Program-made: the position numbers and the translations under genes | Part shown: piece after piece, positions 5,227 through 52,142 of the stretch | Layout of the letters: each line of letters begins with the position of its first letter | Position numbering within the stretch: the first letter of the stretch is position 1 | Origin: Sulfuricurvum sp. | GTDB lineage: Bacteria; Campylobacterota; Campylobacteria; Campylobacterales; Sulfurimonadaceae | Assembly (NCBI GenBank): GCA_036277315.1 | Contig: DASUNE010000143.1 | Coordinates: 1 to 60,729, forward strand | Length of the DNA stretch: 60,729 nt | Direction of reading: 5' to 3' | Notes under the pieces: generated by a model | The model's database searches: none | What the model saw: the letters and a program-made list of their open reading frames with translations, nothing else | What the model was told of the DNA's origin: nothing

Positions 5227-5249
5227 TTTAAGAATTCCAGCGTTACAAT
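5227..5249 (+). promoter_or_regulatory. Predicted sigma70-type promoter of porin 1 (TTTAAG-N11-TACAAT), TSS about 5255-5257
   Basis: Same TTTAAG-N11-TAnAAT spacing as the promoter in front of the 6S RNA (51922-51944). Confidence 0.6.
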
Positions 5250-5310
5250 GGTTTTCGACGAAACAAAAACAGGGTAATTCCCAAAGTCAAGCTTTATTTA
5301 AGGAGAACGA

Positions 5311-6666
5311 ATGAAATTAGTTAAAATGAGCCTTGTGGCTGCAATGGTGATGGGTGCGAGCGCATTCGCGATCGATAACGTAAAAGTTAGCGGTGATGCA
5401 AAAGTATTTTACAGTACAAATGATGCAGATACAACAAATCCTATAACTGGGAATTTTGATAATGATTTGTTTTCAAAAGGTACAAGTGCCGCAGATACAG
5501 CTCTTCGTATCGGTGTAACGGGTGATTTGCTGAAAGGTGTCTCATTTGGTGCTACAGGGTATGCTATTAGTACTCTTGGTTTAGAAAACAATCTTGTTGA
5601 TGCGACTTGGAGTGGTGCTCATGCTGCAAGAACGGGAACAGGTGCAGGATACGCAGAAGTAGATGATCAAGCGTGGATGGGTGAACTTTGGATCGCAGCA
5701 ACTGCAGGCAAAACAACAGCTAAAGTAGGCCGTATGGAGCTTGATACCCCATTAGCATTCTCTGAAAAGTGGTCAATTGTTCCTAATACATTTGACGCTG
5801 CCGTTGTAATTAATCAAGATATTCCGGATACGACATTGATCGGTGCATGGGTCGGTAAAGGAAATGGAACCAATGCTGTTGGTGGTTTGGGACTTGGTAC
5901 TGATAATGAATCAACATTAGATAGCATTGGCCTTGCAGTAGATCGTGGTGTAGTTGGTGCTAATGCTAATTTCACGACATTTGCAAATGGCGGTGCGTAT
6001 GCGGTAGCTGCTATTAATAACTCATTTAAACCTCTTACAGCGCAAGCATGGTATTACAATGTTGCTAATATCGCTGATGCATATTGGTTGCAAGCGGATA
6101 TCGATTGTCAGCTAGTAAAAGGGGTTAAAATCGGTGCACAATACGCCAATATGGATACAAAAGGTGCTCTAAATACTTTTTTAGTAAATAATACAATGTC
6201 AACATCTGATTCAAGTGCATACGCATTTAAATTAGGTTATGAAGGGATTGAAAATCTAAAAGTTTCAGCGGCATATTCGGATGCGGATAATGATGGAGTT
6301 CTTCATATTGCGAACGTTGCAACCAATAACCTTGGAAATGCACAGTCTAAGCTCTATACAGAAGCAGCATGGGGTGGTAGCAATTACGGTTACGTAAGTG
6401 CTCCAGGTGCTGAATCATGGAATGCAAAAGCTAGCTACGATATGAAAGATGTTGCTAAATTTTGCGCATCATATACTTCTGTAGACAATGATATTGTTGG
6501 AAGTACTCATAATCTTGATGAAATAGCATTGTCTGTTTCTAAATCGTTTGGGCCATTGGATGCTAAATTGGCATACATTAGCACAGACGCTGATGATCAG
6601 AACAACGCTGATGGTACTGCTGCTCAATACAACACTGTTAATGCATATTTAACTCTTAACTTCTAA
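5311..6666 (+). CDS. Major outer membrane porin (Campylobacterota MOMP-like), paralogue 1
   Basis: MKLVKMSLVAA signal typical of Campylobacter MOMP, KVGRMELDTP motif, beta-strand pattern, C-terminal Phe; strong AAGGAG RBS. Confidence 0.88.
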   Translation: MKLVKMSLVAAMVMGASAFAIDNVKVSGDAKVFYSTNDADTTNPITGNFDNDLFSKGTSAADTALRIGVTGDLLKGVSFGATGYAISTLGLENNLVDATWSGAHAARTGTGAGYAEVDDQAWMGELWIAATAGKTTAKVGRMELDTPLAFSEKWSIVPNTFDAAVVINQDIPDTTLIGAWVGKGNGTNAVGGLGLGTDNESTLDSIGLAVDRGVVGANANFTTFANGGAYAVAAINNSFKPLTAQAWYYNVANIADAYWLQADIDCQLVKGVKIGAQYANMDTKGALNTFLVNNTMSTSDSSAYAFKLGYEGIENLKVSAAYSDADNDGVLHIANVATNNLGNAQSKLYTEAAWGGSNYGYVSAPGAESWNAKASYDMKDVAKFCASYTSVDNDIVGSTHNLDEIALSVSKSFGPLDAKLAYISTDADDQNNADGTAAQYNTVNAYLTLNF

Positions 6667-6682
6667 GAGTTTTTTCTTCTCT

Positions 6683-6720
6683 CGTCATTCCGTGCCATGG
6701 CGCGGTATGACATCTGTTTT
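6683..6720 (+). terminator. GC-rich hairpin after porin 1 (terminator-like; resembles a CGTC-type REP)
   Basis: gtcattccgtgc...gcgcggtatgac palindrome followed by T-rich sequence. Confidence 0.6.
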
Positions 6721-6896
6721 CTCTCCATTGTTTGTTTCTTTTGTACACTTACTCTTATATGCTTCTTCAACACTCGTTTTATTTACTTGGTTCAAAACAG
6801 TTAATTGATTAAAAAATAGGCAGTTATTTGCATTTATCATGTTCGTCCAGTGATAAACTTGTTTCGACATAAGTCAATAGAACTTAAGGAGAAACA

Positions 6897-8159
6897 ATGA
6901 GATTAGTTAAAATGAGTCTTGCAGCAGCGGTGTTGCTGGGTGCAAGTGCGTTTGCGATCGATAACGTAAAAGTAAGCGGTGATGCAAAGTTGTTTTACAG
7001 CACAGACAATTTGGATAAACCTGCAGGGACTTCAAGTGATGGTCTTTTCGGTCAGGCAAACAGTGTTGGTGATACAGCCCTTCGTATTGGTGTAACGGGA
7101 GATTTGCTCAAAGGGGTCTCGTTTGGTGCAACGGGATATGCAGTATCTACTCTTGGGTTAGAAAACAACCTTGTGTCAAATACCTGGGCTGGTTCTCGTA
7201 GCGGCGTAAAAGACAATGCCTGGATGGGTGAGCTTTGGATTGCTGCGACAGCGGGTAAAACGACAGCTAAAGTTGGTCGTATGGAGCTTGATACACCATT
7301 GGTATTTTCTGAAAAATGGTCAATTGTTCAAAATACATTTAACGCAGCGGTGTTGATGAATACGGATATCCCAGATACGACACTAGTAGGTGCTTGGATT
7401 GGTCAAGGAAATGGACTAAATACTGGAGGTGTTAACAATGATAATCCAGAAGGCTGGGATTACATGGGTAAAGAATTCGGAACTTTTGCTAAAAGTGGTG
7501 CATATGCAGTAGGGGCTATCAACAACTCTTTCAAACCATTGGTTGCACAAGGATGGTATTACAATGTTTCCAGTGTTGCGGATGCTTATTGGTTGCAAGC
7601 GGATTGGGATTGCCAGTTGATTAAAGATGTAAAAGTAGGAGTTCAATACGCAAGCATGGATCCTAAAGGCATTTTAAGTGCAGAAAAGGATTCTGAGGCA
7701 TATGCGGTTAAAGTGGCCTATGCAGGTGTTAAGGATTTAACATTATCTGCTGCTTATTCGAGCGCAGACAAAGATAATGGAGTCTTGAATATTGCTAACG
7801 TAGCAACGGCTAATAACCCTAGTTTATCTGGGTATAGTGGCAAATTTGCTGCACAATCAAAATTGTACACTGAAGCGTGGTGGAATTTTGGATATGTAGG
7901 TACTCCGGGTGCTGACGCTATTGCATTAATTGCAGCTTATGATGCAGGTTTTGCACAGTTTTTTGCACAATTTACAGATATAAATATTAAATCGGCCGGT
8001 GCTACTGATACAACAGATGTGACAGAAGTAACATTGACGGCTACTAAATCATTTGGTCCATTGGATGCAACATTGGCCTATATCTCAGCGGATGATGAGA
8101 ATGTAAATGCTGGTAAACGTTACGATACCGTTCAAGGATACTTGACTTTTAAATTCTAA
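6897..8159 (+). CDS. Major outer membrane porin (MOMP-like), paralogue 2
   Basis: Near-identical N-terminal and strand segments to porin 1, divergent loops; C-terminal FKF; own TGnTAAACT extended -10 at 6851. Confidence 0.88.
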   Translation: MRLVKMSLAAAVLLGASAFAIDNVKVSGDAKLFYSTDNLDKPAGTSSDGLFGQANSVGDTALRIGVTGDLLKGVSFGATGYAVSTLGLENNLVSNTWAGSRSGVKDNAWMGELWIAATAGKTTAKVGRMELDTPLVFSEKWSIVQNTFNAAVLMNTDIPDTTLVGAWIGQGNGLNTGGVNNDNPEGWDYMGKEFGTFAKSGAYAVGAINNSFKPLVAQGWYYNVSSVADAYWLQADWDCQLIKDVKVGVQYASMDPKGILSAEKDSEAYAVKVAYAGVKDLTLSAAYSSADKDNGVLNIANVATANNPSLSGYSGKFAAQSKLYTEAWWNFGYVGTPGADAIALIAAYDAGFAQFFAQFTDINIKSAGATDTTDVTEVTLTATKSFGPLDATLAYISADDENVNAGKRYDTVQGYLTFKF

Positions 8160-8252
8160 TCCTTTGTAGAAGCTTGCACTTGTTTTTGTTTCGTCGCACA
8201 TGCAATTGCAGGACTTAACTCTCTGTCTCTTTGAGACGGAGGATTTTCTTTC
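8160..8252 (+). ncRNA. Candidate 3'UTR-derived antisense RNA complementary to the porin 1 5' end
   Basis: 8181-8196 is the exact reverse complement of 5256-5271; it sits in a loop closed by ttgca/tgcaa and is followed by an intrinsic terminator. Confidence 0.5.
8221..8252 (+). terminator. Intrinsic terminator after porin 2
   Basis: ctctgtctc-ttt-gagacggag stem followed by T-rich tract. Confidence 0.7.
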
Positions 8253-12231: not shown

Positions 12232-12850
12232 GCAAATCCTTCGCACACTGGCTATGTGGATCCTTCCGCTGGTTGGTTCATTGCTTATCCGTCTGATTTA
12301 TCTCACCTCTATAAAACGGTTTCATCTTCCCTCTTTCATTCCCAATGAACCCGTTATTTTTGTTTTTTGGCACTCTGATCTTTTAATGCAGCCTTATTTG
12401 TATTATCAATTTCGTTCGATTCCTAAAGCCAAAGTGATTATCAGTGAGCATTTTGATGGACAGATCATTGCGGGCGTTATCAAATTTTTCGGATTGGGAA
12501 CAATTCATGGCTCATCGACGAGAGGCGGCGCTAAAGTACTCATACAGGGATTAAAAGTACTTGAGGATGGGTATGATATCGGTATCACTCCCGATGGCCC
12601 AAAAGGACCTCGTTATAGCATAGGCAATGGGGTCGTGGTCATGGCGCAAAAACGAAATACGAAAGTCATAGTATTTCACTGTCGTCCATCACGTTATTGG
12701 CAGCTCTCCAGCTGGGATAAGTTTGTTATTCCAAAACCGTTTGGAGTGCTTGATTTTTACGCATCCGAGCCGATTGATTTAGGAGGGTTGGAGCTTGAAG
12801 AGGCAAAGGCCCTATTGGGTAAAAAACTGATGGAACATGCCCTTTTATGA
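12221..12850 (+). CDS. lpxJ: DUF374-family lipid A acyltransferase (LpxJ-like)
   Basis: [36 protein letters not shown] motifs; position after miaB as for HP0270/LpxJ. Confidence 0.75.
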
Positions 12851-13689
12851 GAAAAGAGCTGCATCGCCAAAAAGAGTCATTTCTTAAACATTTGGATGGA
12901 ATGCTGGGATATTCTCCCTTAACATTGATCAGTTACGGTGAGTCGATTGATCAGATGCTGCAACTATCAGAGATATGGGAAGAGGATGGGAAAGTTCAGA
13001 TCAATTTAACCCCGCTTCGTCTTCGTATTGCTTCCCTTAAGCCTAAAACGATTTCCACAAAATTGAGCGCGATTCGCAGTTTTGTCAAATATTTAAAGAC
13101 AAAGGATTGGGGTATTGCGCTGCGCGGCGATGAAGCAATAAAAATCCCAAAAACACTTCCAAAGCCAATTTCCCATGACCATATTCTTGGCGCGCTTCAA
13201 CATGCAAATCCATCGGAGAAGCTGGTGATTTCTCTTCTTTACTCCATGGGGCTTCGTATTTCTGAACTGGCGAATCTGAAACTGTCGGATGTGCATGAAG
13301 AGTGGTGCCGTGTTTTAGGTAAAGGAAAAAAAGAGCGCGATGTTCCGATGCTTGAAGATGTGTATTCGCTGTTTCGCTCGGTACAGCTCTCAACGCCTAG
13401 TTGTGAGTATGTATTTGAGGAAAAAGGTGAAAAATTAAGCGAAAATAGTCTAAGATATATCATTACCAAGGCATTTGCAAAGGTTGGGTTGAGGGTTACT
13501 CCTCATCAGCTAAGGCATTCGTATGCGACAGAGTTGTTAAACAATGGTGCTCGAATCGCCGATGTTAGTGAATTACTTGGACACAGTAGCATGGCAACGA
13601 CACAGATTTATACCAAATTGGGAAATGCAATAAAAATGGAACACTACTTACATTCCCATCCCTTGTGCACAAAAACAGAGGAATCTTAG
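12847..13689 (+). CDS. XerC/XerD-like tyrosine recombinase
   Basis: Complete catalytic set: GLRISEL (R), GKGKKER (K), HQLRH (HxxR), LLGH, TQIY (Y); 280 aa. Confidence 0.9.
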   Translation: MRKELHRQKESFLKHLDGMLGYSPLTLISYGESIDQMLQLSEIWEEDGKVQINLTPLRLRIASLKPKTISTKLSAIRSFVKYLKTKDWGIALRGDEAIKIPKTLPKPISHDHILGALQHANPSEKLVISLLYSMGLRISELANLKLSDVHEEWCRVLGKGKKERDVPMLEDVYSLFRSVQLSTPSCEYVFEEKGEKLSENSLRYIITKAFAKVGLRVTPHQLRHSYATELLNNGARIADVSELLGHSSMATTQIYTKLGNAIKMEHYLHSHPLCTKTEES

Positions 13690-51275: not shown

Positions 51276-51926
51276 TTGCGCCCCATCTATCTCGTCTCTA
51301 AAACGTCCCACCATGAAACGGCGGGCATTATTCATATCCCTATCCTCTCTATCCATTTTTTAACACCTCTCATCAATTTTGACGATTACGATGGCATTAT
51401 TGTGACTTCCAAGCAAGGAGCACTTGCTCTTAAACCCTATGCCCCCGATTGGAAAAAACTACACGTTATCTGCGTAGGGGAAGCAACAGCGGAAGCGATG
51501 AAAGGTTTGGGTGCAATGCACATTGAAATTGCTGATGGATACGGTGAAACTATTGTTAACGTGTTGCGTAAATACTGTGGAAAATGGCTCTATTGCCGTC
51601 CAAAAATGATTGCATCTTCATGGCCCCAACGTGCTCGAGAAGCGGGAATAATCATCGATGAGGTGATTATGTATGAAACACAATGCAACCAAACGATGGA
51701 AAAAATTGAGATCGCCCCTAATGCCGTGCTGATTTTTACATCACCCTCAAGTATTGAGTGCTTTTGTGCACGTTATGAGCTTTTACCGACTCACGATGTG
51801 GTGGTGATCGGAAAAACCACGCAAAATGCTTTGCCATTGGACTGTAAATCACGATTAGCTGAGAAAACGACCATTGAATCGTGTGTAGAAATAGGGCTAA
51901 AATTGGCATCACGAGATACGTTTTAA
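51276..51926 (+). CDS. hemD: Uroporphyrinogen-III synthase
   Basis: IVTSKQG, CVGEATA, YET, FTSPS, IGKTT motifs. Confidence 0.85.
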   Translation: MRPIYLVSKTSHHETAGIIHIPILSIHFLTPLINFDDYDGIIVTSKQGALALKPYAPDWKKLHVICVGEATAEAMKGLGAMHIEIADGYGETIVNVLRKYCGKWLYCRPKMIASSWPQRAREAGIIIDEVIMYETQCNQTMEKIEIAPNAVLIFTSPSSIECFCARYELLPTHDVVVIGKTTQNALPLDCKSRLAEKTTIESCVEIGLKLASRDTF

Positions 51927-51949: not shown

Positions 51950-52142
51950 ACTCTGGGCGCAGCGAGTAACCGCAATATGAGGGTTCTACATATACAACTA
52001 GTCATATCCGTAGACGTTTCGGTGTGTCGGTGGTCTTGTTTGAGCGTGTAAACGTGAGAGATTGCCGCCGGAAGAAACGCTCGATATGGCGCAATTACAG
52101 CTTTGAAGAACCAAAGCTACTGCGAAACGCCCGCCTGGGCTT
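51950..52142 (+). ncRNA. ssrS: 6S RNA
   Basis: TTTAAG-N11-TATAAT promoter; about 190 nt with pairing ends (ctctgggcg/cgcctggg) and central stem cggtggtct/agattgccg; upstream of purD, where 6S RNA lies in Helicobacter/Campylobacter. Confidence 0.75.

Follow-up and report, generated by a model that had tools for sequence, protein, structure and literature searches.

Organization of the tandem porin locus

We analyzed a window of 60,729 nucleotides (nt) of Sulfuricurvum sp. contig DASUNE010000143.1, from a genome labelled G000 (1.82 Mb, 84% complete), in which two porin genes lie in tandem between the fabI-side region and an ABC permease gene. Our subject is an element in the 3' untranslated region (3'UTR) of the second gene, porin 2, which is complementary to the leader of the first gene, porin 1. 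The locus contains the following features, in order of position.

5227-5249, plus strand: predicted porin 1 promoter, TTTAAG-N11-TACAAT, from sequence; the -10 box stands 6-7 nt 5' of the leader core GACGAAACA in 56 of 61 genomes
5256-5310, plus strand: porin 1 leader, the target, with seed site, looped-out hairpin, second site and Shine-Dalgarno (SD) sequence according to the predicted duplex
5311-6666, plus strand: porin 1, 451 amino acids, Porin_4/OprD-like
6684-6711, plus strand: hairpin 3' of porin 1, likely a terminator, with similar strong hairpins at the equivalent place in relatives
6806-6822, no strand assigned: putative dyad operator TGATT-N7-AGGCA, present in 9/9 porin 2 upstream regions
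6851-6896, plus strand: extended -10 (TGnTAAACT, 6851-6859) and short leader of porin 2, predicted from sequence to start at G6866
6897-8159, plus strand: porin 2, 420 amino acids, 58% identical to porin 1 by tblastn
8160-8196, plus strand: antisense region complementary to the porin 1 leader, from cofolding
8170-8216, plus strand: bulged stem-loop displaying the seed, with apical loop UUCGUC at 8190-8195 in the predicted fold
8220-8252, plus strand: terminator-like hairpin (8220-8242) and U-rich tail closing the porin 2 transcript in the predicted fold

The porin 1 leader

Porin 1 is the orthologue of the single porin that occupies this locus in most relatives. Its TACAAT box lies at 5244-5249 with TTTAAG 11 nt further 5', as stated in a preliminary description of this DNA made from the sequence alone, and within the window the same promoter layout recurs only at 51922 (TTTAAG-N11-TATAAT), ahead of a match to the Rfam 'purD RNA motif' at 52010-52140. 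The RNA downstream of the 51922 promoter is presumably the 6S RNA of this group. The description had also made position 5256 the first nucleotide of the porin 1 mRNA. The predicted start does fall right at this site, and because the base preceding GAC varies (C in 43 and T in 13 of 56 leaders), the aligned sequences make G5257 a more likely start than C5256.

The leader is composed of a seed site (5256/5257-5270), a small hairpin (5272-5282), a second site (5284-5295), and the SD sequence (5300-5305). Five genomes do not show the GACGAAACA leader: in G020 and G068 a contig end truncates the sequence, and in G003, G032, and G066 the leader is of another kind. A similar leader is found in another genus (locus L154). 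Since single-porin genomes keep the same leader, its conservation probably has another cause, translation or stability.

An element in the porin 2 3'UTR is predicted to pair with the porin 1 leader

The segments 5256-5271 and 8181-8196 are exact 16-nt reverse complements located on the same strand and 2909 nt apart. They are the only two copies of this 16-mer in G000 at up to one mismatch, and their pairing grows to 18 bp through one G-U pair, G5272-U8180, and G5273-C8179, which the sequence confirms as originally described. The description had confined the contact to the extreme 5' end of the mRNA and thereby underestimated the duplex, which is predicted to reach the SD sequence. In the G000 cofold, 32 bp are formed between 8182-8196 and 5256-5270, between 8169-8181 and 5284-5295, and between UCCUU at 8160-8164 and the SD bases 5300-5304, while the leader hairpin (5272-5282) is skipped and looped out. 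Complementarity spans the region from the predicted +1 to the SD sequence of porin 1 in all 8 loci for which leader and element are both available, with 28-35 predicted intermolecular pairs, and at least 3 of the 5 AGGAG bases of the SD sequence are paired at P>0.8 in each of them (8/8). The duplex energy ranges from -27 to -44 kcal/mol in 7/7 loci.

Target ranking singles out porin 1. Against 3393 start regions of G000, the element pairs best with porin 1 at -38.2, followed by -32.7 for the next region (mean -16.6, standard deviation 3.9). The leaders of the two porins have common blocks and only that of porin 2 is missing the GAAACAAAAAC target block, just as the preliminary description reported; the porin 2 leader ranks 2990/3393 as a target of the element. 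Once the cost of unfolding is deducted, porin 1 leaders bind with a net -12 to -27 kcal/mol and porin 2 leaders with -2 to -10 kcal/mol (8/8). When the 16-mer was removed and the remainder compared with 1000 shuffles, the shuffles not beaten numbered 0 in G021, 1 in G000, 4 in G028, 23 in G019, 35 in G081, 50 in G063, and 313 in G075; complementarity of the second segment beyond the 16-mer is thus clear in three loci, marginal in three, and absent in one.

The element folds into a bulged stem with a UUCGUC loop, followed by the terminator (fold z = -3.6). As described earlier, the second 16-mer copy lies in a loop between the porin 2 stop codon (8159) and the terminator; the proposed closure by ttgca/tgcaa did not hold, and the predicted stem pairs CUUGCA (8173-8178) with UGCAGG (8207-8212). 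The apical loop (8190-8195) is of the YUNR type and complements the first six predicted nucleotides of the porin 1 mRNA. Across 9 distinct sequences, 81% of stem cells are paired, a value reached by 2/500 shuffles and compared with 31-50% in slid controls; in this alignment G021 and G063 were judged to be one column out of register. Rfam searches give no match to the element at the gathering score and none over 8160-8252 at E up to 5, and the porin 2 3' end is without a called sigma-70-type site.

The element is found only where two porins share the locus

Using a covariance model built from 10 elements, we found the element in 8/66 genomes of the genus (G000, G019, G021, G028, G063, G068, G075, and G081). 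These are exactly the genomes with two porins at the locus; the other 58 have none (0/58). Because all 8 positive genomes were in the training set of the model, the informative result is the absence of a match in the other 58. A census of 61 genomes gives the same picture: 53 extend 300 nt or more past the end of the porin, and all 8 tandem loci among them carry the element, versus none of the 45 single ones. In G028 the two porin genes are on two contigs, and the G068 leader is not recoverable, as its contig begins within porin 1 and locus L173 proved unrelated. The distance between the two genes is about 1 kb in G063 (locus L075) and in the metagenome locus L129, versus 150-260 nt in other tandem loci, and a strong terminator-like hairpin follows most porin 1 genes.

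Two further element loci, L129 and L130, come from metagenomes. In the collection scans, 7/14 genome matches and 10/12 examined metagenome matches (of 15 records) are without a porin and were taken as chance. No trans-encoded copy was found in single-porin genomes by the 16-mer at up to one mismatch or by the covariance model under strict filters, and the extra 16-mer matches that we checked lie away from porins and without stem context. Among 20 porin loci of other genera of the family, including 9 tandem ones (one with its 3' end cut off), there is no comparable pairing; the best cross duplex reaches -21.2 and the best of any pair -22.6. The covariance model gave one weak match in 114 other-genus genomes, located inside an open reading frame. 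The family of G059 is represented by only 2 genomes, with one porin each.

RNA-level signal and history of the locus

In symmetric DNA alignments of the leader with the reverse-complemented element, G-U exceeds A-C in 24/24 settings (7-23 versus 0-14), with three of the eight leader-element alignments being poor under the first setting. To judge from these alignments, the conserved pairing signal acts at the RNA level. A by-eye list of compensatory leader-element changes was only weakly borne out. For the 16-mers of the preliminary description, conservation in relatives stood, with the element in 8/8 tandem genomes and an invariant seed, whereas covariation did not come out beyond a weak level.

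We next consider how the locus arose. In a FabI and OppB tree of 44 genomes (22 omitted for missing markers), the 7 tandem genomes need 5 state changes, and a single clade is rejected (p-AU 1.9e-7). This scattered distribution fits repeated loss and horizontal transfer alike. Porin 2 proteins are not monophyletic: those of G019 and G068 group with guanidine-riboswitch-led porins located elsewhere in G029 and G035, and those of G021 and G081 are separate from the G000 group. The G019 porin 2 shares about 40% identity with the porins of G000. It therefore appears from the sequences that the porin 2 coding sequence is swapped, presumably by recombination, whereas the operator, the short leader, and the antisense tail around it are retained. 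In G070 and G076, a porin 2-like coding sequence stands behind a porin 1 leader and carries no element, as expected if self-silencing is not tolerated.

Porin 2 is preceded by a putative nitrogen-type operator

A 17-bp dyad, which the preliminary description does not mention, is located 88-93 nt 5' of the porin 2 start codon in 9/9 loci (6806-6822 in G000). A matrix built from porin 2 sites alone places porin 2, glnA, cobA, and narK within its top 7 matches in G000, and a strict dyad pattern matches 5-9 times per strand in every one of 5 genomes, versus 0 for the reversed control. Among the proteins beside dyads (17 scanned of 31 listed), 8 are GlnA (2), Amt (2), NarK (2), CobA, and a urea-type ABC binding protein; 4 are signalling proteins or superoxide dismutase, and 5 are without a family. 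Genes of the glnA, amt, and narK type are induced under nitrogen limitation. Because the porin 2 dyad also precedes glnA, amt, and narK, nitrogen is the likely signal for porin 2, which would be induced when nitrogen is scarce. More broadly, the dyad (TGATT-N7-AATCA type) likely marks a nitrogen regulon in Sulfuricurvum that takes in glnA, amt, narK, cobA, the urea-type ABC gene, and some sensor genes, as far as its placement in these genomes tells. Its geometry, TGN-N11-NCA, is reminiscent of NtrC boxes. A literature search returned no description of this nitrogen-regulon operator in the group.

By eye, similar dyads are seen before second porins of other genera (L150, L155, L157, and L161). 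Guanidine-I riboswitches (L105 2827-2919, L106 3089-3181, L183, and L186) precede a separate porin in G029 and G035 and a urea-type ABC gene. In G035 and G019 the nitrogen dyad is located about 225 nt 5' of the start codon. G019 and G068 use a relative of the riboswitch-led porin as porin 2, and the G019 locus is without a riboswitch match.

Proposed mechanism and alternative explanations

Taken together, porin 2 ends in a 3'UTR whose conserved hairpin complements the porin 1 leader all the way from the initial nucleotides through the ribosome-binding site. This 3'UTR likely serves as an antisense RNA by which porin 1 is repressed under the nitrogen limitation that would induce porin 2. The proposal of the preliminary description that an RNA from the porin 2 3'UTR acts on the porin 1 mRNA is thus favored at the sequence level by conservation (8/8 versus 0/58), the target rank (1/3393), and the G-U excess. 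In the model, the approximately 90-nt tail (8160-8250), within the mRNA or released from it, would display UUCGUC in its predicted loop. The unstructured 5' end of the porin 1 mRNA would pair with this loop and displace the bulged stem, and the resulting duplex of about 30 bp is predicted to bypass the small leader hairpin and cover the SD sequence. Translation initiation would be blocked, and the duplex would probably be cut, with RNase III as candidate, and decay would probably follow. Porin 2 would escape, its own leader being without the seed site. The net outcome would be the replacement of the main porin by the second one without Hfq or ProQ. Hfq and ProQ were each found in 0/5 genomes, four of the five searched for Hfq being 99-100% complete. 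RNase III and RNase Y are present in 5/5 and RNase J in 4/5 of these genomes; RNase J was not found in the 84%-complete G000.

Several results weigh against this reading. With a length of 16 nt or above and a spacing of 100-5000 nt, perfect inverted repeats turn up 7 times in G000, so the 16-nt match by itself is weak and, taken alone, close to chance; it is the relatives that carry the case for the element. The leader is conserved without the element (56/61) and is thus uninformative for the antisense model. All 10 elements have the same 16-mer, whereas the cognate leaders of 4/7 tandem genomes show changes at +11 to +15; the seed has not compensated for these, which is the main result against tight co-evolution. 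Cognate pairs average -35.4 versus -34.0 for non-cognate pairs, and the cognate is best in 2/7 rows. Permutation ranks are 190/5040 for the full element and 66/5040 for the second segment, with kin that are not independent, and leader-element covariation is accordingly weak. The second segment is not significant in G075 (313/1000), and double-sided stem changes are no more frequent than in shuffles (258/500). When the paired segments are widened to take in promoter bases, values of -27 to -29 are attained by porin 2 self-pairs and by one control pair. The operator matrix finds 20 sites in total in G000, which lies inside the column-shuffled range (3, 26, 7), and only its top matches and the strict pattern are informative. 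Element expression has a hint only: two RNA runs from a single study link the porin end of a relative, via 12 other letters, to the element at 8172. This weak joint (depth 5.8 and 9.6, 21 nt on the short side) is the only RNA trace.

The same duplex could in principle have other roles. Pairing might protect or activate porin 1, with a blocked 5' end stalling RNase J so that both porins rise together. The seed does cover the extreme predicted 5' end of the mRNA, RNase J is encoded in 4/5 genomes, the hly 3'UTR and prsA2 of Listeria offer a precedent (excerpts of PMC8722363), and SD pairing, which speaks for repression, is short in G000 and G019 (5 bp past an internal loop) and weak in G081. We nevertheless regard such shielding as improbable: SD bases are predicted to be paired in 8/8 loci despite differing element sequences, single-porin genomes keep the same leader without a protector, and the porin 2 leader is without the site, which fits escape from repression. 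Because the duplex reaches the SD sequence, repression is favored over RNase J shielding. The element could also be a relic of an inverted leader duplication that survives because its hairpin stabilizes the 3' end or binds a protein, without any pairing in trans. An invariant seed facing drifting targets, the weak cognate advantage, and weak matches of the element model to the leader reverse strand in 3 genomes, as duplication would give, all suit this view, which we consider unlikely given that loop bases are invariant across porin 2 genes of different clades while terminators differ freely, and that a relic has no need of the preference for G-U over A-C.

Two further explanations concern the arrangement of the locus. 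Pairing could occur in cis, inside rare read-through transcripts from porin 1 to porin 2, and silence porin 1 on those molecules only. The element is always adjacent and downstream (8/8), nitrogen-type porins elsewhere in G029 and G035 carry an operator or riboswitch and no element, and the U tail of the G000 porin 1 hairpin is imperfect. This reading is quite improbable, however, as porin 2 has its own conserved operator and -10 box, strong terminator-like hairpins close most porin 1 genes, and G063 and L129 have about 1 kb between the two genes. As for the alternative raised in the preliminary description, in which the 16-mers are recombination sites of a 2.9-kb inversion disconnecting porin 1 from its promoter, the data lend it no support and make it the most improbable of all. 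The 16-mers are perfect inverted repeats in G000, G021, and G028 (3/7), and a gene for a XerC-like tyrosine recombinase lies 4.6 kb downstream (12847-13689; below curated cut-offs). Yet the arms are imperfect in G019, G063, G075, and G081 (11-13 matching nt), every readable tandem locus has the same orientation, the right arm lies in a conserved RNA stem with G-U bias, and the XerC-like gene is syntenic in tandem-porin genomes and also in 4/4 single-porin genomes and hence is not a cassette-dedicated recombinase. Contigs of 4 DNA runs from 3 studies, two at depth 25-60, contain no strand-changing joint, although contigs drop rare forms and one of the runs, X1, may be the source sample.

Within the antisense model, we tentatively envisage a portable cassette for paralogue replacement, a possibility that we hold at somewhat less than even chance. 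It would consist of the nitrogen operator, a target-deleted leader, a swappable porin coding sequence, and an antisense tail born as an inverted copy of the paralogue's leader, and would move between Sulfuricurvum lineages. Because the tail is aimed at a genus-conserved leader, such a cassette could silence any resident major porin without a chaperone. The scattered distribution, the non-monophyletic porin 2 proteins, and the near-equal non-cognate pairing fit this idea. The invariant seed is compatible with a cassette directed at the consensus of the genus, or with the loop being under a second constraint.

Comparison with known systems

The preliminary description took MicF and MicC as the nearest analogy; s-SodF of Streptomyces coelicolor appears to be the closest system and the better precedent, and the element is s-SodF-like in layout. 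According to excerpts of PMC3919588, s-SodF is a 90-nt 3'UTR RNA whose loop pairs with the sodN 5' end as far as the ribosome-binding site and shortens its half-life; part of the review PMC9438474 has a section covering it. The excerpts of PMC3919588 describe an antisense stretch starting about 20 nt past the stop codon in a 3'UTR of about 90 nt, between stop codon and terminator; a bulged weak 5' hairpin whose loop pairs with the first target bases, followed by a terminator; pairing that reaches the ribosome-binding site of another mRNA; and one functional alternative swapped for another under a nutrient regulator. The porin element resembles it in each of these respects, with folds, target start, and the nutrient-driven swap being predicted here. 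An antisense tail conserved together with its donor gene is likewise an s-SodF-type trait, seen here in 8/8 tandem genomes and 0/58 others. In the same excerpts, the enzymes encoded by sodF and sodN depend on Fe and Ni, respectively, with nickel as the controlling signal, and the pairing comprises 19 contiguous bp, whereas here the target is an adjacent homologous paralogue and about 30 bp fall into three blocks (PMC3919588). With an adjacent homologous paralogue as target, the donor needs its own leader edited to escape. Phylum and signal also differ, and the element is in no Rfam family, this absent match being the sole measure of sequence kinship.

MicF, MicC, and MalH are enterobacterial small RNAs (sRNAs); RNase E releases MalH, and RNAs of this class typically use short seeds aided by Hfq. 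Like them, the element is predicted to pair with the initiation region of a porin mRNA. Partial text of PMC9438474 presents MalH as a product of the malEFG 3' end that represses ompC and ompA, so that it shares with the element, besides its 3'-end origin, a post-transcriptional porin exchange tied to nutrient supply (PMC9438474). MicF and MicC likewise serve in porin exchange of this kind. Here, in contrast, Hfq and ProQ were not found, and the predicted pairing is long, has a single target, and involves an RNA that is the replacing porin's own tail.

RNA-OUT of IS10 is encoded on the strand opposite its target, whereas the element is on the same strand, 2.9 kb away in another gene's 3'UTR, and imperfectly complementary. 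RNA-OUT starts from a YUNR-type loop on an unstructured 5' tail and extends to block the ribosome-binding site (excerpts of PMC4737173), and the element would do likewise. Listeria, which has RNase J, offers a further case in hly/prsA2, where the 3'UTR of one mRNA, acting within the full transcript, pairs with the 5' end of the other; pairing there stabilizes the target, whereas here the SD sequence is predicted to be covered (PMC8722363, in part). For OueS of Vibrio cholerae, the excerpted text of PMC13376802 names RyhB, glyA/CBASS, and others as targets, and no paralogous porin leader. What is new in the present system is the lineage, the targeting of the gene's own tandem paralogue, escape by leader deletion, and an exchangeable coding sequence. 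A literature search, mostly outside subscription journals and with supplements excluded, returned no report of the element or of a porin 3'UTR aimed at a paralogous porin leader.

If the antisense model is true, a single transcript would contain a complete circuit in a lineage in which Hfq and ProQ were looked for and not found: the nitrogen operator as signal, the new porin as output, and a means of switching off the old one. Such a circuit would carry the s-SodF design over to duplicated genes in direct competition and show a way in which a duplicate avoids its own antisense. The locus would also be a simple setting in which to study RNA pairing without a chaperone in Campylobacterota, as well as sRNA origins, and the nitrogen-regulon operator of this group is exposed as a by-product. 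If the cassette idea is also true, a regulatory RNA would have been born from its target, giving a natural device that enforces the expression of one paralogue at a time.

Further observations

Several porin 1 positions within 5385-6576 (e.g., 5926 and 6256-6279) differ in contigs of DNA runs X1 and X2, which match the flanks of the window almost exactly. These differences represent strain alleles or assembly mixing in the porin 1 of the window. In G018 (locus L044), the single porin is broken into several frames, as in a pseudogene or through sequencing errors.

In other genera, the porin 3'UTRs of loci L150, L155, L156, and L157 open with TAATCCTTTAGAAG-like sequence, which closely resembles the start of the G000 element. 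By eye it is complementary to the SD region of its own gene, with unremarkable duplex energies, and such a 3'UTR start may be the ancestral source of the anti-SD block. In L109, L110, and L111, a conserved non-coding stretch with GAAGTTTCGTCGACGTCAATAAGG lies 3' of the porin terminator, between a porin paralogue and an OprD-like gene. It has 9 nt in common with the antisense seed and no Rfam match, and it could be a leader RNA of a new type or a weak second antisense.

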